This document shows, one piece after another, positions 13,849 through 42,085 of a stretch of 64,000 nt of DNA. A program made the translations under genes and the position numbers. Every line of letters begins with the position of its first letter. Positions within the stretch are counted from its first letter, which is position 1. The DNA is from a virus, in IMG/VR virus record IMGVR_UViG_3300033463_000109, positions 2,925-66,924 of that record, one strand, 5' to 3'. The notes under the pieces are model-generated. The model was not told the origin of the DNA. It saw only the letters and a list, made by a program, of their open reading frames with translations, and made no database searches.

Positions 13849-15432
13849 TTAATTATAATAATTTATATTAGTATTTTTTATCAAATAAAATGGTACATTT
13901 ATATTATCAATTTCTTTTGTTATACTTTCATAAGCATCATAAGATGGAACTGTTGCTGGTAAAGTGCTTGTGTAATCAAATGTTCCTTCTTTATAATATA
14001 CTTTATGACTTCCCGTTGCTGTTCCAGGCTCATTTGAAACATAACCATAATAGCCATAAGAAACAGCTGATATATCGCCAGTAATGTCTGATTTACTAAA
14101 TACTGGAGTATAGCCTTTAACACCTAAGCTTCTATAATCTTCACCATTTAATGTGGTGCCATTAATTGTTAAAGCCTTTATAAATGTTCCATTTTTAGCA
14201 TTCCATTTAGCTGGCCCAATATATACTTTGTCTTGTGAATGACAAAAACCTATTTCATCATCAGTCACTGAATATTCTCTGCGATCAGTTGCTGCTGAAT
14301 TTTCGACATCTCCTGACATCCAATTAGTTAAATTAAATCTATGGCACCAATTATTTAAATCAGTGTTGTAATATAAATTAATTACTGAAAAGTTGTCACT
14401 TTTGCCATTACTAAAGCCAAACAATAAACCTCTTGATTTAGTGCTACCAACTTGTGGAATTTCCACATTAAATGTGCCGCCAATTTTTACTCCATTTACG
14501 GCAGCCATTGCATTACTTCCTATTTCTCCAATAAGAGCACCAATTCTGCCATAAGCATTACCATTGCCACTCTGGCCATCAGCTCTATTTACATTAAAAA
14601 TACCACTACCAGTAGCTGTAATATTTGTTAAGGTAATACTACCAGTAGCTTCACCTACAAATGCACCACAACACAAATAGCAATCTCTATTGTCTGTTGC
14701 TCAACCAGGTCTTGTTGTTTTAATAGCTAATCTATTCAATACTTCAACTGTAGTATTAATAATCGATCCACCTAACATCTGTCCTGTAATTCCGCCTAAA
14801 TTACAATGTTTACCTGATGTAACCATAGCTTCTACAAAGTTATTTGAGCAATTAAATTTAACATAAATATTTGAGACTGTTCCGGCATTAATTCTACCAA
14901 CTAAAACTCCACAACCAAATGACTGTTTTAATCAGTTACTTCCACTTGTATTATAATAGCGTGCAGTAGAATAATAAGTTAAATTTTTTACAGCACTTCC
15001 TGTATACATTTCTCTTATTAAGCCACCATAGTACCTTAAACCAGAATCTCTATCATCATTATAGCCATCTGTATTAGCTGTTATTGTATGTCCACAACCA
15101 TCTAAAATACCATTTAGATAGTTATCATTAGTGTAAGTAATCGCTGTTGCAATATTAGCAGTTAAATAGCCATATTTACCGGTATTATCACTACCTAAGA
15201 AGTTTTGTAGCTCGCTATCATTAGAAATAGCTACAGCAGTATAACCTGTTGTGTCTGGTACATAGCCTTTAGGCACATCTCCATCTTTTAAGCCGTCTCC
15301 TAGTGCGGCATAAGAAATAGCAAAATCACCACTTGGTATCTCAGCATAGTTTAGTGGGTCATAATTAGCAAAAGCTGTTTTGCCTGCTATATAAACACTT
15401 GCACCTTCTCTTCCATTAATATAAAATGACAT
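13849..15432 (-). CDS. tail-fibre/structural protein with two in-frame TGA (Trp) codons
   Basis: ORF-track pieces 13849..14676 and 14932..15432 share one frame. In-frame TGA at 14932-34 and 14701-03, no other stops between. TAA stop at 13849-51. RBS 'aaggaag' before ATG 15430-32. Confidence 0.6.
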
Positions 15433-15455
15433 TAAATATTATCTTCCTTTATTTA

Positions 15456-16820
15456 TTAAACAACAGGTGTTGCATCTGTTAAATCTATAATTTGAATAGC
15501 ATTTTGCTTACCATTCCATGTTGCTTTTTCTGTTGCATTTGTAAACTTAGCGGTTGTGCTTGTATCTGAAATATCGTCAGCATCTAAGACAACTGTTCCT
15601 GTTGCTCCATTAACTGAATCAACAGCACCACTTCCTGAAGCACTAATTGTATAAGCACCAGCAGATCCTGTAATAGAAACACCTGTGCCAGCAGCTAATG
15701 ATAAGCTCTCTGATGAACCTAAAGCTGTGCCATCAATAGTAATAGGTCTCCATGTATTAGAATCATTTTCTGTATGAACTACATCATAAATAATACTTGG
15801 TGTTAAAGCATCACAAACTAAAATATCACCTACATGCACTGTTTCTGTGCTGTAAGAAAATTGTGCACTTGCTCTTGCTCAATCGCCTGTCTTTGTTGGT
15901 GCTAATGCAGCTAATTCTGTAGCATCAGCAACAACACCTAAATATTGAACGTGGTTAGTTAAAATAGTGTCAACTTGAGCTTTTGAATAAACTGTTATAT
16001 CACTGCCAGAAGCATTAGCAATAGCACCAGAAGATTGGTTTACTCCTGCTTTTAATGTAACAACCCCGGTAGAAGAATCTAAAGAAGCTATTGTGGCAGA
16101 GCCATCAGTAAACTTGGCTTCATAAGTAGAAGCAGCAGTTGAAGTTGTTAGATAGCTTGAAGCATCTGACAATTCAGCAACTGTTGTTGGTACTGTTGGC
16201 TTATTTTTAATAAAGTCTTTCTTTGTGTTATCAGCTTGATTCCAGTCGCTTTGAATTTGAGCATCTGGAATAGCTGGCTTGTCATCTAAGCTTGTATAGC
16301 TATTAGATAAAGCTACAGCAGCTAAGTCTGTTGACTTTGTATAGTTAGCTAAGTCGTCTACATTTTTTGTAATAAAGCCACTTAAATCTGGTTTATTCTT
16401 AATAAAATCTAATTTTGTATTGTCAGCTTGATTATAATCAGCTTGAATTTGAGCAGCTGGAATTGATGGCTTATTAGTTAAGTCATCATAGTCTCCACTT
16501 GTAGCAACATTAGCTAATGTAGGAGCTCCAGATAAGTCTGAATATGCACCGGTAGTAGCAACATCTGCTAAAGAAGCTGTTGGTGTATAATCAGCTAAAT
16601 CTGTTTTTGTAGCAACTACTGTCTCATCAATACTAATTTCATCATTGGTTATATCAATACCATTACCAGCAGTATAAGGAACGCCAGGCACAGCTGAACC
16701 AGGCACACCTAAGATAGTGTGATTTTGTAGTATATTCTCACTATCTAAGTCAGGCTCATAAATAGCTTGACCTTGTGAGTTTGTTAATATTTTATTATCT
16801 ACTGAAATATACTTTCCCAT
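15456..16820 (-). CDS. tail-fibre protein with internal repeats and one in-frame TGA
   Basis: Pieces 15456..15839 and 15879..16820 are in the same frame and separated only by TGA at 15879-81. Repeats 'NQADNTK(L/K)DFIKNKP'. TAA stop. RBS before ATG 16818-20. Confidence 0.6.
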
Positions 16821-16833
16821 TAGTTATCTCCTT

Positions 16834-18306
16834 TTATGCTACTGACGCCGGTGCTTCTACCATGAAATCTGCAACATTTGACCAGTGTGAATCACTTTGT
16901 CATACGCTAAGCATACCATATGGCACAATAATCTTGAAATCAAAACTATTGTATTGATTATCAATAAAATATCCAGACCATGTGCTATCACTTGGTTGAG
17001 GCACTGATGTGCATTTACTAAAGTCTAATTCAACAATACTTGGAGCGTATTGCATAATAACATATGTTTGATTACCACTAGATGGCTCATAATATCCTGA
17101 AATAGTGCTGATATTAGAAAATTTAACTTTAGTTAATCTTGATGGTCTACCATTATTATATGAATTACCTATTAATGCGCCAGCAGGGAAAGTGGTTACC
17201 ATAGTGTTTGAAAAGTCTAATTCAGTGTCATTAATATAATTTAATAAATTTGAATAAGATGACATTGAAGAGCCGAAACTTACAAAACCATTAGGGAAAT
17301 AAATTTTCTTTTCTGCCATGCTTAATGCTGATGGCATGCCTATGCTTGTGACACCAGTAGGAATTACTAAATTTTCCATACGTGTCGAATATGCTATTTG
17401 TTCAGGTATTGTTGTTAAACTATCTGATAAAGTAAAATTACCCATTTGAATATAAACACCTTCACCACCAATTAATGAATTTACACTTGTAAGATCATAA
17501 TTAAGCACTACATATTTTAATTGGCTGCTATATAGTAATCCGCCTCCGCCCATATCAGAAGTTGGTAAATAACAGTTTTGTGGTAAAATAAATGATTCTA
17601 ATGCTACACCACCATAGAAGAAACTAGTGCTTAATTTAGCTGTTGTTGTGTTATCAATAGAACAATGTTTTAATGATCCACAATATGTTAATTCCATAGA
17701 ACCACTGCTCATAGAATCACCACCAATATGTCCGCTATAAATATCAGCTTCTATAATGTTTTGGCCACCAACACAATAACCTAATTGAATTAAGCCTGAA
17801 ACTTTGACAGTATATTCACCAACACTAGCGTATAAGTGTGAATATTCTTGACCTGATGATGTAATTGATGTAGTATCTCCATCGCCCCAATCAATATAAT
17901 TGCTACTTCCTGGGCTTGTAATATTCACTACACGTACACCAAATTGATTAAAATATGATGAAGTAGCAGCAGATTGGCCTAAACGGCTAATTTTAATTTT
18001 AAAAGTAGTAATTGGATCATTTAAAATATAAGTAGCCCCGATAACCACATTAGTTTTACCAACTGTAAGTGTATTACCATTATTTAATTGCTTTGGCGAA
18101 ATCCAGCAATCAAATGTTCTATCACTATGTGTTGGAGCCGTTGGCAATGTATAAGTATCACCTTCATTCTTTTTAACTTGCTCAATTATAGAACCATCAT
18201 AGTCTATAACTGTAATTGTATAATCACCTGTGGCACCACCAGCTAATGGAATAGTTGTTCCATTATAAGTAACTGCTGTAATTGTTTTACTAGTATCTAA
18301 ACTCAT
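16834..18306 (-). CDS. tail-fibre-like structural protein (C-terminus read through TGA 16900-02)
   Basis: 468-aa ORF ends at TGA. The same frame continues 22 codons to TAA at 16834-36. Confidence 0.5.
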
Positions 18307-18326
18307 TTTTATTTATACTCCTTCTT

Positions 18327-18599
18327 CTATACATCTGTAATTGCTAACGTTTGTGTATCACCACTAATTGTAGCTATAATATTATATTCTTCGCCAGCAC
18401 TTGGTGCATCAGTAATAGTTAATGTACAAGTATCTCCTGTTATTGTTTGTAAGATATAATATGTTGAACCACCACCGGATGGAATGCTTAAAATTTCGCT
18501 TGGAAAATCTTGTGGATTAATAAGAGCTGATGTTCCCTTCTTTGCTCTTATAGCATCTGCAATAGCCTCAAATAAATCTGCTAAATTTGTATAACTCAT
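18327..18599 (-). CDS. hypothetical small protein
   Basis: 90-aa ORF. Confidence 0.3.
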   Translation of the reverse strand: MSYTNLADLFEAIADAIRAKKGTSALINPQDFPSEILSIPSGGGSTYYILQTITGDTCTLTITDAPSAGEEYNIIATISGDTQTLAITDV

Positions 18600-18612
18600 T
18601 ATTTAAGCCTCC

Positions 18613-20838
18613 TTAAACAGGTGTATTCATTACAGTGCCTATTGCATCTTGTAAATCTTTTAATGTTGCTAATGTATAAGCACTTCCATTTACAACCCTC
18701 TTTATATCACCTATTGCTGCTTGTGAATAAGCTAGCATAAAGAATTGATAGTCCTCTGTTGGTACTCCATCTACTACCATGCCTAAACGTAGCCTATCAT
18801 ACATATCATCATTTAAAATACGTGGGCTATATGGAGACATAGGATCATATACACCAAATGTATGACTATTTTCTGCTAGTGTAGTGCCATTCCATACAGT
18901 AATATCATCTACTATAGTACTATTCTGTCCTATTATGTTTACACCCATTGCAAAAGTATCTGTAGTAGATAATAATCTTAGTTTAACAGCTCTATCTATA
19001 GCTTCATAATTTTCTATATACAATACATATTGCCAATACTTTGTTGGATTTGGATCACCTGGCCCTTGATTAGGCACTGATATACTAAATATATTTAAAT
19101 ATCTATTAGCAGAGTTATTTGGGTCAGTTTGTATCTCCATCCCATAATAATTTATCATATTGTTTAAGTATGTAGCTGTATTTTTACTTAAATTATAGTA
19201 AATAGAGCCTGTAAAAGCTTGGCTATAATTATTTCAAGTAAGAAGTGTTTCTTCTCCTTCAGTATCTGCAATCTTATAATATTTACCATTATTTTGTAAT
19301 AAAGCTGGTGTAATTTCTTCTACTGTTTCAATTGGAGAATCAGAACTTCCGCCGCCTTCACCAAGTTTATACTTCTTAGCTACATAATTATATGAATAGC
19401 TATCAAAATCAATATATACTATGTATTTATCAAAATCTGTATAAGAACTTGCGCCTGATGTATTTTGATCAACAAAATGACCTATATAAATATAATGATA
19501 TTTATATGTAAATGTGCTTTGATCATAAAGCTCATAATAATTAGCATATGTTGTATATAAATTTAAGTTAGTAAAATATAATGGAAGTTTAGCTTGTATA
19601 TACGAGCCAAAATTACAATAGGTTTCTGTATCATATGTTAAATTATATGATGTAGTATTTACACCTGAAGTAAAAGCCTCTCTAACTGCATTTACACTTG
19701 GAACATTTGTTGTTGAACTTGATTGTAAGTTATTTGATCTACTTGAAGTAGAAATATAACTACTTAAATCAGACGAATGTGTTATACCATTTAAAGCACA
19801 AGATCCGTAATAACCTGCAGTAGAACCTGTATTATTTGTTGTATAGCCATAATATATTGTATCAAAACTTGTTGATCCACCTATACAATATCAATGCCAA
19901 TATGTTGTACTGTGCATATTTACAAATAACAACACCGCTCCCGTATTTGGAATTGTTACAGTTGATGTGCTATTCTTACCATTATAATAAATAGATTTTT
20001 GTCCACCATATGTTAATTTATAAACACCAGGTGTTAATGTTGTAATTCTAATAGGTGATGTTGAAATTTCTGTTATACCTTCTGGAATAGTTGGTGTATC
20101 TGTTAAGTTGTTATAACTACCTGTTGTAGCAACTGTAGCAAGGTCTGATTTCAATGGAACTGTTGTATTATCAATACCGATTTCATTATTAGAAATACTA
20201 ATACCTGTTCCAGCAGTATAATTACCACCTGCATTTTGAATAGCATCATATACACCACCTGAAGTTACTAAGTTTGTGCTATTTTCTGTTGGCTCAGTAT
20301 CAATACTCTTAGCACCACCAGATGTAGTATCTTGTGTTGTAAAATTAGCAACACCATTTTGCACAATAGAAACGCCATTTAATTGGACATCTCTTGTAGC
20401 AGTAAATGTTGTTGTATTATCATTATTATCTGTTAGAGTTAAAGTATTTGTTTGGCTGTCTACAGCAGCTGCCTTGATATATTGTGAAATAGCCGAACCA
20501 GAGCCACCAAATTTTATCCATTCGTAAGTGCCTGACTCAATATATTTACCCCAAACATATTCATCTCCACATTCTTCTTGGCCTGATGTTCCAGTATATT
20601 TAACTGTATAGCAAAAGCCCACATTCTTAGCTTTTTGTGCCTCAGTCCAAGCAGAGCTCATTGCAGTTAAATCAGCATAATAATCAACAGCACCTTTATA
20701 TTTGATGCCATTTCCTAAGCCATCTACTTTCTCATTTAACTCGGCAATTTCAGCTAGGGCTAAATTTGCTTTTTCTAAAGCCTCTGCCCCTTCACCGCCT
20801 GCTGCTTTCTTAGCTAATATATATGCAACTATATCCAT
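18613..20838 (-). CDS. large tail-fibre protein with in-frame TGAs
   Basis: Pieces 18613..19158 and 19891..20838 are in the same frame. In-frame TGA at 19891-93 and 19234-36. TAA stop at 18613-15. Confidence 0.5.
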
Positions 20839-21583
20839 CTTCTACTAGCCTCCTTATTAGCCTAATTTAATCCATTGCTTATTTTCTGCATCAAAAATAT
20901 AAACTGTGCATGTATCCATCTCAAGCAAAACAGATCCATTACCAACGCCTTCAGTTGGCTTTGCATCTGTGCTTAGGCAATAATACTCATAAGTTTGTTC
21001 ATTGAAAGGTGTAATCATCTGTATAATTCTCCTTAATTTCAAGAATTTAGTCTTTCTAACTAATTAATTTAGCAGATTTATAAGCATAATAAAATAAAAG
21101 AGAGCCTCAAAAAGCTCTCTTTTTAGCATTAGTTTAATTTTGCCAGATTATATGCAAATTTTGCCAAGTACTACTAATAATACTATTATACCAATAGTGC
21201 CTATGTAAAATAAAACGTCTTCTTTATTCATCTGCTTGCTCAACAGTGTCTTCTTCAGGTGGTATATCTTCATCACCTTCAATATATGTATAAATGTTAG
21301 GTATGTCTATTGCATCTATATACTTATCACCTGTTTCATTTTGAATGATATACTTATTAGCATCACTATAAGTATGAACAAATTCATTTCCTTCAATTTC
21401 TATAATTTCTTGAATTAACATATTAACCTCCTACATTGCAAACATAAATGATACATAGTATGTCGTACCTGATTGTATATACGATTCATAAAGTTGTCCA
21501 CCCGAGCCTATACTATTACCTGTCATTTCGTTTACAGTTATGAGTGTTCTTGTCCACCAGGCTGCTCCTGTAGTAGTTCCTGC

Positions 21584-23662
21584 TTTATACTTTGTTCTAT
21601 AAGAATCAGAATTATGACTATTTCAATATGCTAACTTACCTAATATACTGCCAGTTTTATAGCTTATAGTTTCGTTACTATTTGCATTGATTTCTCCATA
21701 AGAGTTTATAAAGATTTTTACAATGGCATCCGAAACACTGCTATCTCCTTGATATTCATGATTAAAATATTTTATCTTAATATTATGTAATTGTGCTTTT
21801 AAGTCACTAGCTAATACATTATATAGTGTGCTATCTACATAAGCTTTAAGTTCTGAATTGCCATAATTTCTACCATAAAGTGGATTATATTTATTACCTG
21901 TTTCTTTGTTAAAGAAATATTCAGCTGTTGTTCCTGTTTGTGCACAATCAAATGTAATATATGTGTACATATCGTTGTCAACATCATAGTATCTACCTTC
22001 TAAGAATTCCATAATTCTTATTGTATAAGTATTACCATCTTCACCTATAGTATCTTTAGTATCTCCAATTTGCCAACCTATATCTTCTGCTATTCTATTT
22101 TCTGCTACATATCTTATTTGTGATCAAGAGTTGTTTGCAAATCCTGTTGTTTCATAAGGGTTATTAACTCCGTCATATACGCTTACAAAGATAGCTAAAC
22201 CTGCAGATGCTGTAACTGTATATGACAATGTTGATGTTATAGTAGTTGAATTAGCTCTGGCTTCGTAAATAACATAACTTGGATCATTTGGTGTATACTG
22301 TATAGTTAATTGAGTTCCTACTGGTATCCAATCACCTTCTTGATACGTATTAATTCCATCTGTAACTTCTACAGAGCAATCTAAACCTTTAAGTGATTTT
22401 AATTTCGTGTGTGTTTGTGATGTAGAGATTTCGCAATAGTAAGGTTCACCTACTATAGCTTCAGTTACTTGTGCACTTGCTGGTAAAGCGCTATTACCTC
22501 TTGTATAGTTAGAATACCAAGTTAATGAATAACCTTCTTCGTTAACAGCAGGTAAAATAGTTGATTCAGCTTCTGGCAACCACCCCTTAATCCAAGAAGC
22601 ATATGAAGACCAATTTGTTTTTACTTTTGCTTCATGTACTTGGTTGTACGGAACGAATAATAACGTGTATTGCATATTATAAAAAACATTAGATTGCGTA
22701 ATATTAGGAACGCTTAAAAACTTTGCTACGTTGTATTGCCAATATCCAAAAGAATATGAACCCGAAACAGTTGCAAGTACTTCAGGTAAAGAAATATCCA
22801 TATACTTAAATCTATAAGAGCTAGAATTCGCACCTATACAATAACTGCTGCCTAGAGTAGTGAATGTAGCATTTGTAAAATCTAAAGTTATTATGCTACT
22901 AGAAGGGGAACTTCTTGAAACACCCAGTTGTCTAAAAGCATGTTGTCCTACAGATGATACTCTACCTTTTAGCTTAAAGCTCGTTGCATAGTCTAAATAA
23001 CCAAAAGCTTGTGTACCTATTAAACCATTGACTTCTATATCAAAAGCACAATAATTATTTCTTATTGAACCAAAAGCATATTCAGCTACTGAACCTAAAA
23101 TACCTGTTACACTTTTTAAGTTTGCACCATTAAATGCATAGCTACCTACGTTGCATTGTTGTGCAAAATGTAGTTCTATTGTCTTATTAGATGTACTACC
23201 ACCTAAAGCATAAAAAGCATATGTGTTTATATTTGTTACTTTAGGTATACTCAAAGATGTACACAACTTACAAGAGCTAAATACATAGCTACCTATACTT
23301 CTACATTCTGGTAATGAAATTGATAAAACAGGGCGAGTACCTCCTTCTATATAATCTAAACTGAATGCACAATTACCTATAGTCTCTACTTTTGGTAATT
23401 CAAAAGTTGCAGGCATAGTAACTCCTTGAAAAGCATATTGACCTATAGTTATACAATTTGGTAATGTAGGAAAAATATTCATTGTACTCTCCCTATAGAA
23501 CATATAAGGTCTAACAGAAGTCCATGTAGATAAATCTAATTGCACATTTGTTAAGCTATTATCATTAACTTGTTTTAAGTAATCATTATCTGGTATGCTT
23601 ACACCGCCACCAGCTCCTGCTAATACTTTTCCATTATATACTACTATCTTTCTATCTGCCAT
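21584..23662 (-). CDS. BspA-type leucine-rich-repeat surface/tail protein with two in-frame TGAs
   Basis: Pieces 22124..23662 and 21623..22012 are in the same frame. TGA at 22124-26 and 21623-25. TAA at 21584-86. Repeats 'IGxxAFxxCxxLxSIxIPKVTxI'. Confidence 0.55.
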
Positions 23663-23667
23663 ATTAT

Positions 23668-24528
23668 TTATTCCTCTATTGCTTCAAATGTTATAGTGCC
23701 ATTATTATAAAGTGTGGATCAGTAGGTAGCCGCCTTATAGCTTTCAATTAAGCTTTCTGGCACATATACAGTTATGCCGGACTTGCCCCAATCAGTGCTA
23801 ACTAAGCTACAAACTGTGCTAGCACCTAATGTAACTGCAGCAAGTTTTGGGCAATTAAGAAATAAGCTTTCACCACTACTAGTATTATTTATTTTAGTTG
23901 CTTTTGGCAAAATAATTGTTTCTAAATTACTACAATAGGCAAAACATTTTCCAACAGTTATGCATTCAGGTAAAGTTAAAGTTTTTAATCCATAATTGCT
24001 TCTAAATGCCGAATTTCCGACTGATGTTACTTTTGGCAAATCATATGAAGATACACTAGAACAACCGCTAAAAGTTTCACTATTTAATGTAGTTAACTTA
24101 GGCAAAGAAATAGTTCCTGATAGTCTATTATCACTTGAAAATGCACCTAAGCCAATATCTGTTAGGCCTGCTGGATTTAAACCTGCTATTGTTTGCAAGT
24201 TTGTACATTGCATAAATGCATATGTGCCGATTGAAGTCAACTTCGGTATGCTAATTTTATAGCCTGTCAAACCAGTGCACCTTGAAAAAGCATAATTTCC
24301 CAATGTTGTAACATTTGGCAAATCAAGCTCAACTAGCTTTGGTAGACGGCATGACCCACCTGAAGCACTGCCTGATAGATTGGCAGTCACTTTAGTTACT
24401 TTATCTGTTTTAATAGAAGTAATACTGCCATCTAAAATACCTGATAAATCTGGAATAACATCTATAGTTGGCGTTCCAATATTACCTGTTAAAACTTTTC
24501 CATTACATGTTACTACTGCTTTACTCAT
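23668..24528 (-). CDS. BspA-type leucine-rich-repeat protein (read through TGA 23719-21)
   Basis: 269-aa ORF with 'LPNVTTLGNYAFSRCTGLT...IPKLTSIGTYAFMQCTNL'. Ends at TGA. The frame continues 16 codons to TAA 23668-70. Confidence 0.5.
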
Positions 24529-24972
24529 CTATATTCCTTCTATTCAGTTAATTGCTTTTGTGCCATATTTTGTAGCTGTGCCTTCAAACCATATAGCATC
24601 ATATTCTTTATTAGGTAGGCCTCTTCTATCTCTTATAGTTTGATACCAATATCTTATAACACTTGGTATTGCTACTATAAATAACTGTAACGGCCCAAAA
24701 ATTATATTTTGTAATGAATGTCCAAATTCATGTCTTCTTGTAGGTTGAAAATAATTTTCTCCTGAGTTCTCTATAAAAGAAATAACCCCTAAATTTAATC
24801 CTCCTCAATTATTTCCTACAACAACTATATAGCTAAATCCATTCTTATAGATAGGGCAACCAGCTAAGCCTAAAATAACTAAGCCAATTAAACCTGGTAT
24901 TGAAAGCAACGCTCCCCAGGTTAATGATAGTATCCAATATAAAATCTTTAATAATGTCTTTTTTATATCCAT
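24529..24972 (-). CDS. small integral membrane protein with in-frame TGAs
   Basis: ATG at 24970-72 with several predicted TM helices. In-frame TGA at 24805-07 and 24544-46. TAG stop 24529-31 directly before the next ATG. Confidence 0.35.
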
Positions 24973-24974
24973 TG

Positions 24975-25784
24975 TTATCCTTCAATCTGAAAGTCTATGT
25001 TTGACAAGTCTATATTAAAAGCTGCTACACAATAACAATATTGGTACGTTGCATCATAGTATGTGTCTATATAGCTGCCAGGGCTATTGCCTGTGCAATA
25101 CATTCAAGCTGCTGTCGAATTTGTTGCTGCAGCTGAACTGAATCGATATACATTAGCATCATCATCAGGTAAATCAAACATATTTTTTTTAATAGCTGTA
25201 GTGCTAATATTATAACTATTATTAAAATATGATACAATATCATCTATGTCTAAAGCAAAGCAATTCAATTCTCCATTTGTCTTTTGTGTCACTTTTGTAT
25301 AATAAATATTCATTTGTGTTGAATCATCATCTACCTGTAGACAAAAAGTCTCACTTCCGCTATGAGTAGTGCTTAGAGTATAACAACTTTGGACCCTATT
25401 AGTAGGTATAATTGCAGCTTTTACATTGGTAGCTAATGTATTATAATAAGTATTATTTAATTTTATTGATAATGTGCTATTTGTATAATCTTGATAATAA
25501 TTACCATTATCAAATTGAGCTGTTTTACTAGTTGTATTAAATGCTGACGCACCAACTTTATTTGATACTTCAAGTAGCTTAGCTACATTACCGCTAATAC
25601 TTAACACTCTAAAACGTATATTTGTGCCATTGGCTAATGCATTAAAGTTAATTATATCTCCTTTAACAGGCATTTTTTTATTAGCAGATCAAACTTCAAC
25701 GTTACCATTATATACCTTTTTAATTTCAGTATTACCATAAAATATTTTCTTTATTTGGTTTGTTCCAAAAAACATTCCTGACAT
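24975..25784 (-). CDS. structural protein with two in-frame TGAs
   Basis: ATG 25782-84 after RBS 'agagagg'. TGA at 25689-91 and 25104-06. TAA at 24975-77. The 25104..25673 track ORF is its central part. Confidence 0.45.
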
Positions 25785-25795
25785 AAAATACCTCT

Positions 25796-27703
25796 CTAGC
25801 CTGAAATTAAATAAATATATCCACTATATCTATTTGAAGGCTCTGAAGATAGATATACAATATGTATACCGCCATCTGATATAGCTGCTGTTGGAGCAGT
25901 TGTTTGTAATGTACACATTGAAGCATCTAGCTTTGAATATATCATATTTTCAACTGATGTATTATTAGTTAGTCTAAACCAACCCAAACCATTAAGTGCT
26001 CAGTATGCTTTACCATCTGCTATTCAAACTCGATTACCTTCTATTTGATTTTGTTGGCCTGTTCCTGGTCAAGTTTTGACATTTCAAGTTAAGGTAGCTT
26101 TATCTAAAACATATTGATTTAAGCCTAATGAGTAATAAAGATTATCTCCATCAGACCAAATGCAGATACCATCAAAGCTTGTTAAACCTGACCATGTTTT
26201 AGTAGATCATGTAGATGTTGATTTATCTAAAATATACTGAGTTGAACTGTTTGAATAATAAATATCTTCTCCGTCTGTTCAAACAGACCTACCATCAAAA
26301 TCTGTTAATCCTGTTCAAGTTTTAGTTGACCAAGTAGATGTTGATTTATCTAAAACATATTGATATGAGCCATATGAATAATAAGTATCAGTGCCGTCAG
26401 TCCATATATACTGACCATCTTCTGGAGTAAGGCCTGTCCAACTCTTAGCTGACCAAGTAGAAGTTGATTTATCTAGCACATATCAGCTTCCTAAAATCCC
26501 ACCAGCTTTAATATAAATATTCTCTCCATCTGTTCAAGCACTTTGACCATCAAGATATGTTGCACCTGTTCAGGTTTTAGCTGACCAAGTAGAAGTTGAT
26601 TTATCAAAAGCATATTGATAAGACATATACGAATAATAAATATTGTCCCCATCTGTTCATACATATTGACCATCGATAGCTGTTAAGCCGCTACTGTCTG
26701 GCATCTTACTTCAATAAGCTTCCATTAGCTTATCTTGCTTCTTTTCTTCAACAGCTTTAGCACTTGGCACTTGGCTCTCTCTTGATAAAGCTGATAACTC
26801 TTGCGTAACGAATGGCCCTTCAAAAGCTAATGTTTTGTCTAGTATATATTGGTCAGAGTCACTTGAATAGTAGATATTATCATTGTCTGATCAAATATCA
26901 CGCTTGTAAAAATCAGTGATACCAGTTCAAGTTTTTGTTTCTCAAGTAGATGTTGACCTGTCTAAAACATATTGAAAATAGCTGCTATTTGAATGATATA
27001 TATTTTTGCCATCAGATCAAATATACTGTCCAAATAAGTTATATAAATCAACATTATCTCCAGCTATTCAAATCTTTTCTTCTCAAGCAGATGTTGTTTT
27101 ATTTAAAATATATTGATCGGCTCCATTTGAATGATAAATATTACCATTGTCTGTTCATATATGTTGACCATAAACATTGTCAAACCCTGTCCAGATTTTT
27201 TGTGACCAAGTAGATGTGGCTTTGTCTAGCACATACTGATTGTTGGGACCAACCGACCAATAGATATTCTCACCATCAGACCAAATACTTTCAGATGTAA
27301 ATTCTGTTAATCCAATCCAAGTTTTTTCAGACCAGGTAGATGTAGCTTTGTCTAAAACATATTGTTCAGAGTTGTTTGAATAATAGATATTATCTCCATC
27401 AGATCAAATATAATCTCCTCTAAAGCTTGTAAATCCTGACCATGTTTTTTCAGACCAAGTAGATGTAGCTTTGTCAAGTACATAGTGAGTTGAGTCAGAA
27501 TAGAAAGTATTATCACCATCAGACCATATAAGTGACCCTGCAAAACCCGTTAATCCTGTTCAAGCTTTTGTTGATCAATTATTTGTATATTGATAATCTT
27601 TTACTGTGTTATCTTGCTTCTCAGCTAATTGTCCAGAAACTTGTGCATCATATTTTTCTTTAAATCTTTGTAGTTGTTCTATCTTAATTACTTCATTAGC
27701 CAT
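25796..27703 (-). CDS. tandem-repeat (~40-aa 'YVLDKSTSTWS...DG.NIYYS' units) structural/receptor-binding-like protein with many in-frame TGA (Trp) codons
   Basis: ATG 27701-03 with RBS 'aaggaaaag'. Same frame as terminal piece 25796..25987. DNA repeat of ~120 nt. No ORFs in the track because of roughly 20 in-frame TGAs. Repeat copies align TGG with TGA. Confidence 0.5.
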
Positions 27704-27725
27704 ATCTTATTCTTTTCCTTTACTA

Positions 27726-28424
27726 TTAATTAAATAAGTTATCTATATCATTATCTGTTGCAAATGTTAATGCATCTTGTTTATTTACTATATTTGCCAC
27801 AGAGATAGAGTTTGTTCCATCAGTTAAATTACGAGATAAGTATAAATCTCTCCATCTATTCTTTCCTGTACCTGTTCCTAAATCAACATTACCAGAACCT
27901 CTATCATAAGGAATAACTTTTGATGCATTTATTTGGACATATGTAAGATTAGTAGGATCACCTAATTCTATATTATTATTTAATCCTAATAATTGAAAAT
28001 CTCCATTAGTCCATCGTCCATAAATATACTTATATCTAGTAATATAAATATTACTATCAAATATCTTTGGACCTGTAATAGTTTGATTTCCATTTAATGT
28101 TACATAGTTACTTAAATCAGGTTGATTTTCCTTAATTACTTCCTCAATATTTTTAGCATCCCATTTAGTATTATCAAAATCTTCTGCTACATTTACTGCT
28201 GTTTTACATTTATATACTTGACCTTCATAAATAACTACATCACCTACTGCATATGTTGAAGTATTATCATATTCTTCAGCAATATTTGTTAAATCGGTTT
28301 TTGTGGCTAACTCAGTCTTATCTGCTTTAGCCTCTATAATGTCGGAAGTGCTAATAGCTGCAGCAGCTTGTGTGTCAGCTATAGTAGCTACCTGTGTATT
28401 TGTACTAAATGATGAATTTGGCAT
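27726..28424 (-). CDS. tail-fibre-like protein
   Basis: 232-aa ORF with TAA stop. Confidence 0.45.
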   Translation of the reverse strand: MPNSSFSTNTQVATIADTQAAAAISTSDIIEAKADKTELATKTDLTNIAEEYDNTSTYAVGDVVIYEGQVYKCKTAVNVAEDFDNTKWDAKNIEEVIKENQPDLSNYVTLNGNQTITGPKIFDSNIYITRYKYIYGRWTNGDFQLLGLNNNIELGDPTNLTYVQINASKVIPYDRGSGNVDLGTGTGKNRWRDLYLSRNLTDGTNSISVANIVNKQDALTFATDNDIDNLFN

Positions 28425-28445
28425 TCTCTATTCTCTCCTTTACTA

Positions 28446-29360
28446 TTACATTACTTGAGCACATCTTAAAATAATTTTTCCATCGCCACTATTTAAATAT
28501 GTTGAAATTTCATATAAGTCTGAACTTTCAGTTACAAAGAATAACCCAGCATATTCAAAGCTTGCATTTCTATTTAATGCTATGCTATGTGATGTGCCAT
28601 CAATTTTAATAGCTATTTTAATAATATCATTTTGAAGTGAATCATAATCATATGGCCAAGCAGAAGGTGTAATGACTAAGTAGTGGTTTGTCTTTAATGA
28701 AGTCCAATCACTTGCACTTACTATCAATGAGCTTGACATGCTAATTAAATCTTTAATAGTAGCACGAGTTGATTTTAAATTGTCTATATCAGTATAAATA
28801 TTACTTAATTTAATTTGGCTCCATTTAGTTGGGTCAAAAGCGCCTGTTTGTGTAGGTGCTTGTATACATCTATAATATAGGCCATTATAATTTACTATAG
28901 CACCCTTAATATATAGAGTATTTATGCTATAAGTAGGAGCTAAAGCAGTTAAAGTCATGTACTCTTGCAATACTTCTAATGCTTTAGTCATATCAGCTGC
29001 TGTTAAAATATCTTGCACAAAACTGTTTAGTATTAGTTTACCATTTACAAGTGTAGCATTTTTAACTGCTGCTGGGAAATCTGCCCAATTATAAGACTTT
29101 TGTGTAAATATTTCTTGACATTTAGCTAACGTTGGCTCTGAACCAGCACCATACATACGTGTTAAGTTTATAATCTTAAGGTAGTTTGTAGTAAATGCTA
29201 AGCCAGTATAGTTCCACATAACAATTTCATCTATATCTTGTGTTAATATTAATAGACTTTCTTTATTAGCTTCTATGAGTTCTAAATACTGTATTGTTGT
29301 TCCAGCTGCTTTAAGTGTAATACGCTCATTAACATTGTAAGAATTATTAGCATTAGGCAT
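28446..29360 (-). CDS. structural protein
   Basis: 304-aa ORF. An in-frame TAA at 29391-93 bounds it upstream. Confidence 0.45.
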   Translation of the reverse strand: MPNANNSYNVNERITLKAAGTTIQYLELIEANKESLLILTQDIDEIVMWNYTGLAFTTNYLKIINLTRMYGAGSEPTLAKCQEIFTQKSYNWADFPAAVKNATLVNGKLILNSFVQDILTAADMTKALEVLQEYMTLTALAPTYSINTLYIKGAIVNYNGLYYRCIQAPTQTGAFDPTKWSQIKLSNIYTDIDNLKSTRATIKDLISMSSSLIVSASDWTSLKTNHYLVITPSAWPYDYDSLQNDIIKIAIKIDGTSHSIALNRNASFEYAGLFFVTESSDLYEISTYLNSGDGKIILRCAQVM

Positions 29361-29393
29361 AGCATATGAAATATAAAGTATGTCGCCAGCTTT

Positions 29394-32300
29394 ATAATCT
29401 AATGAACTACCAGATATAGTAGCAACATCACCTACAGTATTTGCCCAAGTATATTCACCAATATATGTATTTGTTACTGCTTGTGAAAAGTTTACATCGA
29501 TAATACTAGCCTTATCTACTTTTGTAGCTAAAGCATCATATACACCACCAGAGGTTACTAAGTTTTCACTATCTTCTGTTGGCTCATCTTCAATAGATAA
29601 TAAGTCTGCTTCACTTGACGGTAAACTAATCTTACCTGTGTTGTCAACTGAATAAGCTGTTCCGTCAATTTCAATACTTGTTGCTGCATTTACATTAACA
29701 TTTTTATTTACAATAGCTAATGGTGTACCATTTAAATCTATTGTATCTATTTTACCACCAGCTAAATCTATTAATTGTAGAATACTAATTGCTGTCCATT
29801 TTAATGGATCAAAATCTTCTGCAACTGTAATTGCTGTTATACATTTATATAAAGTATTATTATAAATTACTACATCATTAACATTATAAGTTGCTGTATT
29901 ATCATAAGTATCTGTAATATCTGTATAATTTACTTTACCTGCTAATGCATTTTCTACATCACCAAAGCTATCTATTGCTGTGCCATCTTTAATATTTGTT
30001 ATTTCAGAAGATAGCTCACCTGATTTCTCATCTAAAAGAATTTCAGCTGCAGTTGCTCTAGCTGTTTCAGCACTTATAGCACCATGTAATGTAGCTTCTT
30101 CATTAGTTGTTAAAAACCATCTCTTAGCTTGTGGAGGTTCTGCACCACTATAAGCTAATACTTCTAGTGATGTATTTGTAAATGCTGCCCAACCAAAGAT
30201 ATATAAAACATTTTTTCAGTCTGCTGGTGCATACCAAGCACTTTCATCTGTAGCCTCAATCTCTTTAGTTGTGCCTATAGCATAGATTAAAGTCAATTTC
30301 TTTTGGTTATCTTCAATAGCAGTATCAGCTAGTATAGTATCCAAGCTAGCTACTAAGTTAGTATAAGCATCTTTCTTATTAGACCATTCATTTGCTCTAA
30401 TTTGTGTGTCAGTTAATGAGGTACGTCTATCTATAAGTTTTACATACTTAGTCGTTTCATCTACAATACTATTATATTCTACTCAGATGCTACCTATTAC
30501 TTCATGTTGTTCTTCCAAGTCTAGATCTGTAGTTATATCTTCTTGACAAACTTCAACAAATAAATCTAAGTCTGTTTTTAAATTTGCAGATGATGTTCTG
30601 CTATCAAAATATATACTATGAGAAGTATATGCAATATTTAATATGCCATCAAATGTAGCATCATTATAGAATTCAGCTTTATTTGATTGATATTTACCAT
30701 CAATACCTAAACCAATAATTGTGCCTAACTTATTACTATTTATTGTAATATTAGATGGAGTTGATGGTGGATATTCATAACAAGTAGAGCCTTTACCATT
30801 TCCAGCATTATGTTCCCAGCCAGCTCTTACCTTAACATCACCATTTGTTGTATAATAGCTTTGTCCTGTTGGTTGTGTTGCAATATCATACTTATTAAAG
30901 CCTGTATTGTTATTTGTTGAATAATTTAATATTCTATTTGCTTGCTGTGATGTCTTATTAGGATTTGTTTGAATGCTTGATAGCTTATTAGCTGTAAGCT
31001 TTAAGTCATTATAAACATTTATTGTTGTGAAAGGAACTAATGTCATTGTTCCCTCTTGACTTATAGGTTGTGGCTGTTGTGTAAATTCTATTTTGTAAAT
31101 ATAATTATTTCTAAATTGTCCACTATCTTGACCTGTATATCTAATATAATAGCCATTATAATTTGAAGTAATATAGTTATTTATTTCAGCTGGATTGCTT
31201 ACATTAATGAAGGCTTCTTTTTCTAATTGGTCTTGAACAGCCTTTGTAGTTGGAGCATTATTATTATTTATATTTCCGGCTTGACCCTTAGTAAATGAAA
31301 CTTCAAAACCTTGCGGAGTAGCTGTAATAATACCATCAACTTCAACAATAGTCTTTAAGTAGCTTCCATCTTGTCCTACATTTGCTGTATTTAACGCTGC
31401 AATTTTTGTATCTGTATATGTTTTTGCAGCTAATGTTGTAGGCGCATTATTATCTGTTGGTGTCTCAAAGTTGGTATCAAATGCTTTTGTATGTGAATGA
31501 GCAATACCATCAGTTTCAGTAATATAATCTACATACTCACCATTTGTTGTTGATTCAGCTGTATTATCTAAAGCAGCAATAGCTGAGCTTACTGTGCTTT
31601 CAGTAGCTAGCTTGTTAGTGCTTGCATTATAAGTGCCATCTACAGCAAAGTCTACATTTTTATCTTGGTCAATTGGTAGCTTTGTCTTATCACCATTAAT
31701 TGATAGCGTATCAATTTTACCACCTTCTGTTTTTACATAGTTTTCGGTAGCAAGTTGATTATTATAAGCAGCATCATCTGGAAGAATATCTCCGGCATCT
31801 ACTAATGTGTGATTAGTATCATCCCATACAACAAGTTGACCATCAACTAAAGCACCTCTTGTAGCGATTTTTTGGCCTTGATTTGTATCAAAGTCAAACT
31901 CTCCATCAATATATTTGCCTTCGCCTAACATCAAAGCATTTTCTACAGGGTCATATAAGCCAACACCTTCTGCTTTAGCTACATAATATTGACGTCCTTG
32001 TGTAAATGTTAATGAATCATCTAATTTATATTTATTTGTTTCATATTCATAATAATATGTGTCAGGCTTATAATCTTGCTCTAACAAAGCATATTCAGCA
32101 TATTCGCCTGTAAGAGCCACTACACCTGTTAAATCAGTTAATGGTGCATTTGTACTATTAGTAACTAATAAATTAGATTTAGCTTGAATAGTTTCTTGGT
32201 CAACAGTAGTAGTTGTGCCCTTAACAGTTAAGTCTCCCATAACTGTTGTATTATTTTTAGCCGTTAAGTTTCCTTGACCATCTACTGCTATTGCTGTATC

Positions 32301-32549
32301 AAACGTATCAAGTCTGCTATCTAAAGCACTTTCTGCTGCTCTTGCTGTTTCTGCTTCTTGAGCTAAATCTAGTGATAAAGCCCTTTCAGCAGCCTTTGCT
32401 CTAGCCTCTTCGTCGTCCACATCAGCTACTCTATTAGCTTCTTCAGTATCTATTCTATTTTTTACATCATTATTAAGCTTATTAAGAACCTTATCTGATT
32501 CTTGTTTATAAAGCTTTAATTCTTCTAATGATACTATTTTATCACTCAT
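29394..32549 (-). CDS. giant tail-fibre protein. The 30483..32549 portion is secure; the extension to ~29394 through TGA codons is likely.
   Basis: The 688-aa ORF ends at TGA 30483-85. The same frame stays open for at least 30 further codons. No M-initiated ORF is listed for 29361-30482, which fits multiple TGAs. Nearest in-frame TAA is at 29391-93. Confidence 0.35.
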
Positions 32550-39619: not shown

Positions 39620-39737
39620 ATTGTTGGCTGAACTATAAATCTGTTTGGCTGGGACTGCAACCCAGATTTCCGCCTTAGGAGGACGGTGTTTTTTACGCTT
39701 TTTAAACTACCAAACTTGGTCTTTTGTTAAGAAAGAT

Positions 39738-39757
39738 AGAAATAAGTATCAGCTCTA
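39738..39757 (-). repeat. conserved motif, copy 5
   Basis: 'agaaataagtatcagctcta', 5' of an anticodon arm 'CCGTC CTCCTAA GGCGG' and T-arm-like 'CTGGG TTGCAGT CCCAG'. Confidence 0.45.
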
Positions 39758-39766
39758 TTTTTATTG

Positions 39767-41734
39767 TTAATTTGCATTAGCTAAGGCTACTAGCTTTTCT
39801 AGTTCAAATGTTCTAATAACCTTTTGCTTTTCTGTATTGATTACAGCTGTATCATCTAAGACAATATCAGCTTCTTCTGGAGTGGCTACTAATTCACCTC
39901 TTTGCTCCATAATATTACCAATATTCAAGTCTAAGAATGATGGGTCTAAATACTTGTCAAAACCTGCACCATCTGAAGCTGTCAATGTTCTAGCGTTGCA
40001 TTCTACCATTAAGTTTAATGAAATGATTTCCATTGTATCTAAATCAATAGCAAATGCTGTGCAGTATCTTGTATCACCCTTTACATGGAATTGTAAAGCC
40101 ATATTCTTTGGATCCCAAGCTCTTGTATTTAGATCATCCTTGTTTTGGTATCCACAGTAGATTTCACCCTCATTTAGAGTGCTTTGGTAGCCATGTAAAC
40201 CTTGAATGATGTACTTACATCCTCTTGCCTTCATGGCTTGTAGGTTAATGTCAAAGTATTCAGCACCATCTCTACCTCTGTCATCGCCTGAGAATAAAAT
40301 GTCGTTTCCAAATGGCTTTTCTGAATAATTGCAATAGTTCATTGTAGCTACTCTGCCATCTTCAAATATTAATAGTAAGTCTGAATCAATATCATAAGCA
40401 TTCTTCCAATAGATGAAAGATCTAATATACTTACCTTGACAAGCTACTCTTGAGCCTGTTGGTAATGTATCAATGCCCTTACCAGAAGCTGAAGTATTAG
40501 TTGGTAAACCAATGTTATAGAAAGCTGGGTTAATGTAAATCTTTCCTAACTTTGGCAAATTAGCATAGTATTCTAATACCTTTCCAATGCACTTTTCTCT
40601 TAGGAACTTTAATGTGCCTTCTGATAATCTTGACTTTCTCCATCTTGCTTCGTAGTCAGTTTCAACGTGTCTCTTAACCTTATTCTTAGCGAAGAATGTG
40701 AATGTTCTAGCTTGATTTCCATCAGCCTTTAATGTATTTACCAATTGTAGTAAAACGATTGGATTCTTGGCTTCTAACAAGCCCAAAATCTTAATTTGGT
40801 CTTCTGGATTAGCTCTTGATAAAAGCATCTTTAGGTTTCTTTGCAATAAAGAACCATTCTTAGCATATACTTGTGCTGCTTCATAAATCTTACCTTGCTT
40901 AAACAAAGCTGTAGCCTTCTTATATGGAGAGTTGGCTTCAACTTGCTTCATAAAAGCTGCATCACCAAACTTTTGGATTAGCTTGTTGAAATACTTAGCT
41001 TGCTTCTTTGACAATGGGCAGTTTCTTGATAGCTTCAAAGCAGCTTCTAAAATAGTAGCTTGCTTGTCTGACAAAGCCTTTACAGCTTGATCTAATGAAG
41101 CCTTTTCACCCATGTACTTAATAGATAGCTTTACTACGTCCTTCTTATCTAAGAACTTAGCGAATTCAACATTCTTATCTAATAATAACATAATGTTATC
41201 CTTACACTTTAAGCCATTTTCTGTATCTACTAAGCCTTCATTGAATAGCAATTCAAATTCAGCTACTTCGTCTAAGCCGAATGGTCTTGTGTAAGCACAG
41301 TAAGCATCAGCTACTTCTCTTAGCTTAGCTAAAGCCTCTGTTGGCTCTAAGATAGTGAAATTACGTAAAACAATTTCATCGCCTACCTTATATTCTGGCA
41401 AGTCCTTCTTAAAGATTTCTGGTCTTGTATAAATTCCTGTGCCTGTTTCAACTAAGAAATATGAAACTAATTGTTCAATTAGCAACTCTGACTTAGTAAA
41501 ATATCTTAAATCTTGTGGATTTGCATAGAAAGAAGCTGGAACATTTAGCTTGTAAAGTCTTGAAATGTCTTCTACCATTTCCTTTGTTAACAAACCTGGC
41601 TTATCTACAGCTATACCATAATTGCATAGCAAATAAGCATTCATGTAAGCATTCTTAGAAGCATCCCTTGTACCTGCTTCATCTGCGACTAAAAAACGTC
41701 TCTTAACTAATAAATCCTTTAATTCCTTTCTCAT
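39767..41734 (-). CDS. large protein with C-terminal TerD-like (Ca-binding) domain, embedded at the edge of the tRNA island
   Basis: 655 aa. 'ILFSGDDRGRDGAEYFDINL' resembles the TerD 'SGDNxTGEGDGDDE' motif. An internal 'LKADGNQAR' resembles ligase motif I but is unverified. Confidence 0.4.
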   Translation of the reverse strand: MRKELKDLLVKRRFLVADEAGTRDASKNAYMNAYLLCNYGIAVDKPGLLTKEMVEDISRLYKLNVPASFYANPQDLRYFTKSELLIEQLVSYFLVETGTGIYTRPEIFKKDLPEYKVGDEIVLRNFTILEPTEALAKLREVADAYCAYTRPFGLDEVAEFELLFNEGLVDTENGLKCKDNIMLLLDKNVEFAKFLDKKDVVKLSIKYMGEKASLDQAVKALSDKQATILEAALKLSRNCPLSKKQAKYFNKLIQKFGDAAFMKQVEANSPYKKATALFKQGKIYEAAQVYAKNGSLLQRNLKMLLSRANPEDQIKILGLLEAKNPIVLLQLVNTLKADGNQARTFTFFAKNKVKRHVETDYEARWRKSRLSEGTLKFLREKCIGKVLEYYANLPKLGKIYINPAFYNIGLPTNTSASGKGIDTLPTGSRVACQGKYIRSFIYWKNAYDIDSDLLLIFEDGRVATMNYCNYSEKPFGNDILFSGDDRGRDGAEYFDINLQAMKARGCKYIIQGLHGYQSTLNEGEIYCGYQNKDDLNTRAWDPKNMALQFHVKGDTRYCTAFAIDLDTMEIISLNLMVECNARTLTASDGAGFDKYLDPSFLDLNIGNIMEQRGELVATPEEADIVLDDTAVINTEKQKVIRTFELEKLVALANAN

Positions 41735-41783
41735 TTTTTTATATTCCTTTCCTTTATTTATTTGGCTCAGCTGTTATATAAGG

Positions 41784-41864: not shown

Positions 41865-41875
41865 ATAGAAATAAG

Positions 41876-42004: not shown

Positions 42005-42085
<81 letters not shown>

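Follow-up and report, generated by a model that had tools for sequence, protein, structure and literature searches.

A predicted UGA-reading tRNA with an anticodon-like extra arm and tryptophan recoding of TGA in the tail-fibre genes of a large phage

Late-gene recoding of TAG to glutamine or of TGA to tryptophan was reportedly described by Yutin et al. in 2021 for crAss-like phages. Stop codon reassignment in the late genes of these phages, which infect hosts with the standard code, has proteomic support in the case of code 15 (Peters et al. 2022, PMC9523058). In the gut jumbo phages Jade, Sapphire and Agate, the structural and lysis modules are TGA-recoded, and suppressor tRNAs are encoded (Borges et al., bioRxiv 10.1101/2021.08.26.457843; later Nat Microbiol 2022). 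Here we describe a 64-kb stretch of viral DNA (positions 2,925 to 66,924 of the IMG/VR record IMGVR_UViG_3300033463_000109; hereinafter, the window; 34% G+C, with all credible genes on the minus strand) that contains a block of tail-fibre-like genes interrupted by in-frame TGA codons and a gene for a tRNA with the anticodon UCA (hereinafter, tRNA(UCA)). The window is very probably a piece of a large phage in which a subset of genes is written in code 4 (TGA = Trp), with the phage's own, Trp-derived tRNA(UCA) as the decoder; the genes outside of the fibre block and of a gene pair at 50.5-52.0 kb are compatible with both codes.

The likeness to the Jade, Sapphire and Agate phages covers general features (low GC content, a size of ~150-230 kb, gut-type metagenomes) as well as the organization of the recoding, namely, TGA codons in scattered structural-type modules, standard-code replication genes, a TGA suppressor within a tRNA array, and few TGA stops. 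This likeness is seen without a terminase or capsid gene and, in a difference from those phages, no "code-change operon" for tryptophanyl-tRNA synthetase (TrpRS) and RF1 is seen in the window. The crAss-like phages differ in that they belong to another phage order, have Bacteroidetes hosts, and recode mostly TAG rather than TGA. In cellular code 4 (Mollicutes and some endosymbionts), UGA is likewise read as Trp by tRNA-Trp(UCA), but in those cells TGA stands for Trp genome-wide; the cellular tRNA-Trp(UCA) has an ordinary short variable loop. Recoding of TGA to Trp is, as such, already published, and the window adds one more case.

When minus-strand open reading frames (ORFs) are delimited only by TAA and TAG, the split ORFs of the 13.8-32.5 kb region merge into 10 tightly packed genes (Table 1). 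The 5,659 codons of these fused genes include 37 in-frame TGA codons and not a single TAA or TAG; the two off-frames of the same genes contain 565 TAA, 379 TAG and 308 TGA codons. With TGA read as sense, the coding density of 13849-32549 rises from 73.6% (table 11) to 98.2%, that of the replication block is unchanged at 93%, and the remaining blocks barely shift. The fused genes abut, with spacers of 0-31 nt except for one of 205 nt. An earlier note on this DNA, made from the letters alone, had listed interrupting TGA codons and proposed how the ORF pieces should be joined. Each listed codon is found on the minus strand (at 14934, 14703, 15881, 19893, 19236, 22126, 21625, 16902, 23721, 25106 and 30485), the pieces join as proposed, with zero TAA or TAG codons between them, and re-calling of the genes with TGA as sense gives the expected longer ORFs and higher density. 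Four frames were said to run past a TGA (at 16900, 23719, 25104 and 30483) to a nearby end. All four run on; for the last one, the nearby end does not hold, as the gene that starts at 32549 continues for ~2 kb beyond it, crosses another TGA at 30218 and ends at 28446. Thus, the block consists of long ORFs broken only by in-frame TGA, the pattern of phages with TGA-to-Trp recoding. Under the standard table, about a quarter of the 18.7-kb tail-fibre block would be lost and ten proteins would be split or truncated, among them the 1367-aa fibre and the Trp-rich repeat protein with 22 TGAs; for predicting the host, such host-recognition proteins are the most important ones.

Three further datasets contain contigs (L083-85) that are 99.99-100% identical to the window across 14975-33961, with zero differences at the TGA codons. 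These independent assemblies indicate that the TGAs are real rather than assembly errors. The public gene calls on these contigs already use code 4, and the lengths of the called proteins (1367, 635, 269, 147, 286, 743, 741, 490 and 454 aa) match those in the window; in particular, an identical 1367-aa gene corresponding to 28446-32549 is called in an independent assembly.

The assignment of TGA in the recoded genes to tryptophan, proposed in the earlier note, is strongly supported by repeat columns and homologue alignments. In the gene at 25796-27703, the three W columns of the 11 repeats comprise 33 cells that are filled with 15 TGG and 18 TGA codons and nothing else, so that 18 of the 22 TGAs of this gene sit in columns otherwise occupied only by TGG. 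The two repeat copies that had originally been compared give the peptides reported and indeed differ by TGG at plus 26438-40 and TGA at plus 26315-17. In the 743-aa protein (21431-23662), TGA codon 513 corresponds to W in 6/6 full-length homologues, and the Pfam DUF6273 match (residues 595-714) extends across the second TGA. In the 490-aa protein (16834-18306), which has weak matches to BspA-type leucine-rich repeats (LRR), the Listeria-Bacteroides repeat and PKD, all under the Pfam cut-offs, the sequence HWSNV that follows the TGA resembles the conserved C-terminal NW motif in the consensus of this protein family. An hhalign comparison of the 286-aa protein (23668-24528) to A1 (probability 98.9) aligns position 270 with the invariant W351 column. 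In the 269-aa protein (24975-25784), for which the hhalign comparison to the DUF6273 alignment gave a probability of 2.7 and a database search was used in its place, position 227 is W in 16/18 homologues, and position 32 is W only in the two nearest ones.

In the 147-aa membrane protein (24529-24972), position 56 is W in 50/50 homologues; two distant ones, P0077 and P0063, are encoded in the standard code, and therefore, their W in this column is encoded by TGG. Position 143 is W in the six closest homologues, at least two of which are TGA-coded there. These closest homologues come from other recoded phages in which W is TGA translated with code 4 and, for this reason, are not counted as independent. 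In the orthologues from L034, L035 and L029, conserved W columns pair a TGA of one phage with a TGG of another. Altogether, among the 25 of the 37 TGAs of the fibre block that were assessed by homologues or repeats, 24 face Trp or TGG, one faces Tyr and none face Gly, with positions 143 and 32 counted as Trp-facing by their nearest homologues only. In IMG/VR, neither two segments of the tail-fibre genes nor the phosphoesterase gene adjoining the tRNA(UCA) yielded any relatives, which makes a codon-by-codon comparison of the fibres with close relatives impossible.

The distribution of TGA over gene classes is highly uneven. The fibre block (13849-32560) contains 37 in-frame TGA and 65 TGG codons, compared with 0 TGA and 45 TGG in the 20 replication and nucleotide metabolism genes (719-13834, minus strand), all of which end with TAA or TAG; this difference in the TGA share of Trp-type codons (37/102 vs 0/45) is significant (Fisher p = 1.7e-7). 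The claim in the earlier note that the early replication genes are free of TGA is thereby borne out. All the remaining genes together have 5 TGA and 93 TGG codons, and the contrast between the fibre block and all genes outside it pooled (5/143) gives p = 1.9e-11. Of these five TGAs, three are in the adjacent genes at 50489-51953, and the other two are in doubtful ORFs of 50 and 58 aa; the NAD metabolism genes are TGA-free as well. Nowhere in the window does a gene end with TGA, and beyond the recoded blocks each ORF called with table 11 terminates at the TAA or TAG that ends it in the TAA/TAG-only scan. The absence of TGA stops combined with the use of TGA as sense in one gene class indicates that TGA was lost as a stop everywhere and adopted selectively as a sense codon. 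Among the relatives of the ThyA region, some (L001, L003, L026) show the same pattern, and others have no in-frame TGA.

The confinement of recoding to late genes, as originally proposed, holds within the window so far as gene type is concerned, TGA being used in the tail-fibre or adhesin-like genes and in the two genes for membrane or secreted proteins at 50.5-52.0 kb; the recoded genes would represent the late class judging from gene type and annotation only. A host with the standard code can be inferred and would fit both the lack of TGA in the early genes and the presence of a suppressor tRNA in the phage; further hints come from matches of DnaB to Firmicutes phages at less than 30% identity and from the published work on gut jumbo phages. 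Another TGA-recoded phage lineage is represented by L034 (a 60-kb contig from Logan SRR9866660) and L035. In this lineage, the gene for the DNA polymerase III alpha subunit contains 0 TGA and 21 TGG codons, and its neighbours, including one encoding a GIY-YIG endonuclease, contain 5-8 TGAs each; in these phages, therefore, recoding is not limited to structural genes.

The candidate decoder, a 95-nt tRNA(UCA) that was overlooked in the earlier note, is predicted to fold by minimum free energy (MFE) into a cloverleaf with an extra hairpin. The anticodon loop is CCUCAAA, which defines the anticodon UCA. The acceptor stem AGGGGCU/AGCCCCU is of the bacterial tRNA-Trp type, so that the tRNA carries the Trp identity pairs A1-U72 and G2-C71 to G5-C68. 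Trp identity in bacteria is determined by G73, the anticodon C34C35A36, and A1-U72 along with other acceptor pairs (PMC9976931). The anticodon of the window tRNA is U34 C35 A36 rather than C34 C35 A36; instead, UCCA is present in the loop of the extra arm, a 6-bp hairpin in the variable region (ACUGAG-GUCCACA-CUCAGU). An ordinary tRNA-Trp(CCA) with a short variable loop is encoded in the same window. A search with the family model R1 detects only one gene of the tRNA(UCA) family in the window. ARAGORN without the intron option reports no tRNA at 52769-52863. In the intron mode, ARAGORN offers instead a "Leu(caa) with a 9-nt intron", which appears to be an artefact given that the intron-free UCA cloverleaf is backed by Rfam, the MFE fold and 30+ homologues. 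Borges et al. say nothing about the structure of the suppressor tRNAs but remark that non-canonical ones may escape detection (bioRxiv 10.1101/2021.08.26.457843), as the window tRNA(UCA) escapes ARAGORN. Variants such as the window copy (C33, 95 nt) are missed by this tRNA finder and members of the long-arm family are labelled "tRNA-SeC(tca)"; such omissions and mislabelling might partly explain why a suppressor is detectable in only ~35% of the TGA-recoded phages.

The extra arm is shared by a family of phage tRNAs (Table 1). A search pattern in which nothing but the anticodon arm and T loop was fixed identified 29 phage tRNA(UCA) genes in IMG/VR; when the pattern was relaxed, the unique long-arm tRNA(UCA) in this database increased to 28, and further members came from a metagenome (one) and from phage-like contigs in GTDB bins (four); the exact 19-nt anticodon-arm string of the window tRNA is absent from IMG/VR. 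Besides the window copy, ~34 related phage tRNAs have a covarying extra arm, with UCCA in all but three of the loops. Among 20 aligned sequences, each of the six base pairs of the arm has undergone compensatory changes on both sides (e.g., CG 8, GC 5, AU 4 and GU 2 at one pair), whereas in the arm loop CCA is invariant, and the preceding U and the following AA are at least 90% conserved. All 28 unique IMG/VR long-arm tRNAs contain CCA, in the form of UCCAAA in 22, other CCA-containing hairpin loops in 5, and GUCCAAC without a clear stem in one; each extra arm forms a hairpin when folded alone. The consensus of the loop (7-9 nt), C/G-U-C-C-A-A-A, is that of the tRNA-Trp anticodon loop. The conserved structure of the extra arm is, as such, solid.

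Related phages encode the tRNA(UCA) along with a tRNA-Trp(CCA) that is its paralogue. The two tRNAs of L053 are identical at 62/74 positions, the difference being C34U plus the inserted arm, and the CCA paralogues have short variable loops and no arm. Long base-paired variable arms are found also in tRNA-Sec, in class II tRNAs (Ser, Leu and bacterial Tyr), and in allo-tRNAs (Mukai et al. 2017, PMC5389517), and the tRNA-Sec shares the UCA anticodon too. However, the arm loops of all these tRNAs are short and not conserved in sequence, in contrast to the 7-9-nt copy of the Trp loop in the phage family, which also differs by the 7/5 acceptor/T configuration with Trp-type acceptor pairs. In a control set of eight genuine tRNA-Sec genes that the same search pattern recovered from bacterial genomes, the arms are equally long, with loops of 3-4 nt (6 nt in one case) that lack the motif. 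In a screen of 31 phage UGA suppressors, 13 of the 13 tested inserted Trp in an E. coli extract with the E. coli synthetase (Seki et al. 2025, PMC12636597), which indirectly supports Trp incorporation at UGA in the window phage. The window tRNA resembles these in being a phage-encoded tRNA(UCA); it differs from the phage tRNA(UCA)/TrpRS pairs AP1 and HF2, in which the synthetase is phage-encoded, none being seen in the window. The text of Seki et al. mentions no anticodon-like extra arm, a comparison by description rather than by sequence. More generally, no mention of an anticodon-like arm on a suppressor tRNA was found in the literature on recoded phages, UGA suppressors, non-canonical tRNAs and tRNA identity, which was covered incompletely, so that this is absence of evidence only.

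Two other variants of suppressor tRNAs were encountered among these loci. In L061 and L063, single arrays hold both a long-arm tRNA(UCA) and an amber suppressor tRNA(CUA), and in several loci of this type reading TAG as sense lengthens the ORFs more than reading TGA as sense. The possibility that amber suppressors carry an analogous arm was considered and dismissed given that both tRNA(CUA) are 77 nt long and have short variable loops. L048, L057 and L068 (IMG/VR, 38% GC) have TGA where orthologues have Gly, e.g., in the C5-methyltransferase motif PCQ-X-FS, and their tRNA(UCA) combine a Gly-like acceptor stem (GCCCCAG) and discriminator U with the arm loop AUCCA or AACCA. It is possible, on thin grounds, that the arm in this case likewise displays the identity letters of Gly, C35-C36, in parallel with the Trp case.

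Several observations weigh against the reading of the window as a phage that decodes TGA as Trp with this tRNA. Position 680 of the 743-aa protein, where TGA is found, is Y in 5/6 homologues. The tRNA itself has the discriminator C73 rather than the bacterial Trp determinant G73; among the other 29 extracted tRNA(UCA), G73 is present in 25, A73 in one (L041), and U73 in the three Gly-like ones. It further has C33 in place of the near-universal U33. The same C33 recurs in L049, L059 and L070, that is, in four independent phage tRNA(UCA) genes including the window one, and therefore is not a sequencing error. Finally, the CCA end is not encoded, and the arm loop GUCCACA departs from NUCCAAA. With these four deviations, the window copy may be weak, and another tRNA(UCA) copy or a phage TrpRS may sit outside the window.

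Alternative explanations of the in-frame TGAs have to account for the same data. The host itself could use code 4, as do Mollicutes-like or other bacteria with UGA = Trp, in which case no early/late switch would be involved. The lack of TGA stops in the window is what a genome entirely in code 4 would show, and one tRNA of the same family is on a contig binned as "Bacilli bacterium". Nevertheless, this explanation is unlikely because TGA would then serve all gene classes, which is at odds with its absence from the 20 replication genes and from the other well-supported genes outside the recoded blocks (~50 well-supported TGG-using genes lack it), with the presence in the phage of both tRNA-Trp(CCA) and tRNA(UCA), and with the lack of any in-frame TGA in some relatives of the ThyA region. 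Far less probable is the decoding of TGA as glycine (code 25): although phages of Gracilibacteria and Absconditabacteria with this code exist and L048 and L057 use TGA where orthologues have Gly, 0/25 assessed TGAs of the window face Gly, and the acceptor stem of the tRNA is of the Trp rather than the Gly type. Selenocysteine insertion by a tRNA-Sec, to which the UCA anticodon, the long variable arm and the ARAGORN label of the family would point, is just as hard to credit. The tRNA has a 7/5 acceptor/T configuration, a 4-bp D stem and A1-U72 instead of the 8/5 (or 9/4) configuration with a 6-bp D stem, genuine tRNA-Sec look different, and one gene has 22 TGAs, with W sites in the repeat columns interchanging with TGG. 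As for decaying pseudogenes, rare leaky read-through or assembly errors, nothing beyond the mere presence of in-frame stops speaks for them, and they are very improbable considering that TGA only, and never TAA or TAG, interrupts 5,659 codons, that domains extend across the TGAs and genes abut after read-through, and that the TGAs are identical in three independent assemblies.

If the window phage indeed recodes TGA as Trp, the early genes would be readable unchanged by the host which, as can be inferred from published work on such phages, would read TGA as stop. The recoded genes would not be made until tRNA(UCA) is expressed and charged with Trp, a dependence that would tie these genes to the late phase. 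As the tRNA(UCA) accumulates, it would compete with RF2, and the fibre genes would become translatable. How a stop-reading tRNA is charged by a host enzyme that reads the anticodon was left open by Borges et al. The change of CCA to UCA would remove C34, a TrpRS identity nucleotide, and the extra-arm loop N-U-C-C-A-A-A might re-present the CCA loop to TrpRS, either directly or via an alternative fold. Together with its 3-4-nt 3' linker, the arm resembles a second module of anticodon arm plus variable loop and, by virtue of this likeness, the tRNA might adopt alternative folds in which one or the other hairpin is stacked on the D stem. Accordingly, it can be tentatively proposed, at somewhat less than even confidence, that many phage UGA suppressor tRNAs, the window one included, are "two-headed", with UCA on the canonical arm and a second head that gives the host TrpRS its CCA signal, so that UGA could be read as Trp without a phage synthetase. 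If so, the synthetase and the ribosome would read two different elements of one natural tRNA. The copy of the Trp anticodon loop on the extra arm provides a concrete hypothesis that is testable by mutation and could guide the design of engineered suppressor tRNAs.

A function of the arm unrelated to recognition by TrpRS is nearly an even possibility. The arm could have remained from tandem duplication of the anticodon arm, bind a modification enzyme or some phage factor, shield the tRNA from host tRNA nucleases, or be a decoy for Trp T-box riboswitches. Three points also count against the charging role. The tRNA-Val (44724-44811) and tRNA-Asp (48728-48817) of the window have hairpins of 4-6 bp inserted in the variable region as well, which is unusual for these tRNAs, so that arm insertion is not specific to the suppressor; the loops of these hairpins are of the GAAA type (GAAA in Val) and do not copy the anticodon. 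Some close relatives, such as the 223-kb contig of L003 and L043, recode with a short-loop tRNA(UCA), and therefore the arm is not obligatory. Besides, the tip of a variable arm is not where TrpRS would expect the anticodon. The resemblance of the arm and linker to a second anticodon arm and variable loop also agrees with an origin by duplication. However, a neutral leftover would not combine complete turnover of the stem with an invariant loop, the conserved letters match the Trp anticodon loop exactly, down to the U33-like and A37/A38-like positions, and the tRNA-Trp(CCA) encoded alongside lacks the arm that its UCA paralogue has.

The ThyA encoded in the window has relatives on phage contigs in IMG/VR that reach 220-233 kb, which identifies the window as part of a jumbo phage genome; genes for capsid, portal, terminase or lysis proteins are absent from the 64 kb. 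A megablast search of GenBank phages with the 20-kb late block produced no match and, together with the low identity (<30%) of DnaB to its best matches, those from Firmicutes phages, this indicates that there is no cultured relative among GenBank phages. The exact sequence of the window ThyA is absent from the public assemblies looked up, tRNA genes are lacking from all 33 ThyA-anchored loci, and no synteny is seen between the window and the loci that carry related tRNA(UCA).

Table 1. Features of the 64-kb window and members of the extra-arm tRNA family (positions of TGA codons, in parentheses, are those of the plus strand)
Feature	Coordinates	Strand	Details
Replication and nucleotide metabolism genes	0.7-13.8 kb	minus	DnaB, DnaC-like loader, dUTPase, DHFR, dCMP deaminase, DNA methyltransferase, ThyA
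Large tail-fibre/adhesin-like proteins	13.8-34.3 kb	minus	BspA-type LRR, DUF6273, CBM5/12 domains
Recoded gene, 527 aa	13849..15432	minus	no family match; TGA codons 167, 244 (14934, 14703)
Recoded gene, 454 aa	15456..16820	minus	tail-fibre-like repeats; TGA codon 314 (15881)
Recoded gene, 490 aa	16834..18306	minus	TGA codon 469 (16902), then 21 codons to TAA
Recoded gene, 741 aa	18613..20838	minus	TGA codons 316, 535 (19893, 19236)
Recoded gene, 743 aa	21431..23662	minus	LRR_5 and DUF6273; TGA codons 513, 680 (22126, 21625)
Recoded gene, 286 aa	23668..24528	minus	LRR_5; TGA codon 270 (23721)
Recoded gene, 147 aa	24529..24972	minus	membrane protein, HEFGH motif; TGA codons 56, 143 (24807, 24546)
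Recoded gene, 269 aa	24975..25784	minus	weak DUF6273-like match below Pfam cut-off; TGA codons 32, 227 (25691, 25106)
Recoded gene, 635 aa	25796..27703	minus	eleven ~41-aa Trp-rich repeats; 22 TGA, 17 TGG
Recoded gene, 1367 aa	28446..32549	minus	tail-fibre-like, CBM5/12; TGA codons 689, 778 (30485, 30218)
tRNA array, ~29 genes	39.6-48.8 kb (39641..48817)	minus	26 ARAGORN tRNAs, Gly-GCC 42772-42842, Phe-GAA 44561-44638
tRNA-Trp(CCA), ordinary, 76 nt	42607-42682	minus	short variable loop
Probable degenerate tRNA-Gly(UCC)	42849-42920	minus	anticodon loop CUUCCAA; weak family-model match
Auxiliary genes	49-64 kb		NAD synthetase, NADAR, Nudix, isochorismatase-family, cytidylyltransferase-like, SPFH, RlaP nucleotidyltransferase
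Recoded gene, secreted (signal-peptide) protein	50489-51208	minus	weak LRR_5 match below Pfam cut-off; 2 TGA
Recoded gene, membrane protein	51198-51953	minus	1 TGA
tRNA(UCA), predicted UGA decoder, 95 nt	52769-52863	minus	Rfam tRNA 49.1 bits; family model R1 94.7 bits
Extra-arm family loci (1)			L042, L044-L048, L050, L052-L058, L061-L066, L068-L071, L076, L077, L080
Extra-arm family loci (2)			L090, L093, L095, L102, L109, L117, L123, L139; plus window 52769-52863

The composition of the plus strand of the window is skewed (T 36.7%, A 29.3%, C 19.7%, G 14.3%), with all genes on the minus strand. The family model yields weak tRNA-like matches missed by ARAGORN and by Rfam at the gathering threshold, at 42849-42920, 46361-46464, 38272-38356 and 39224-39331, of which those other than 42849-42920 are much weaker. 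The TGA-free cluster of NAD-related genes at 56077-63972 encodes an NADAR protein, a Nudix protein, an isochorismatase-family protein that is possibly a nicotinamidase, a cytidylyltransferase-like protein that is possibly an NMN adenylyltransferase, and NAD synthetase. The products of the genes at 37082-37834, 56649-57659, 35161-37082 and 53659-54387 include a Thg1-like 3'-5' nucleotidyltransferase, a nucleotidyltransferase of the RlaP family and several metallophosphoesterases. Next to the tRNA array, these proteins could form a tRNA/RNA repair toolkit, which may matter because several tRNAs of the window, including tRNA(UCA), lack an encoded CCA.

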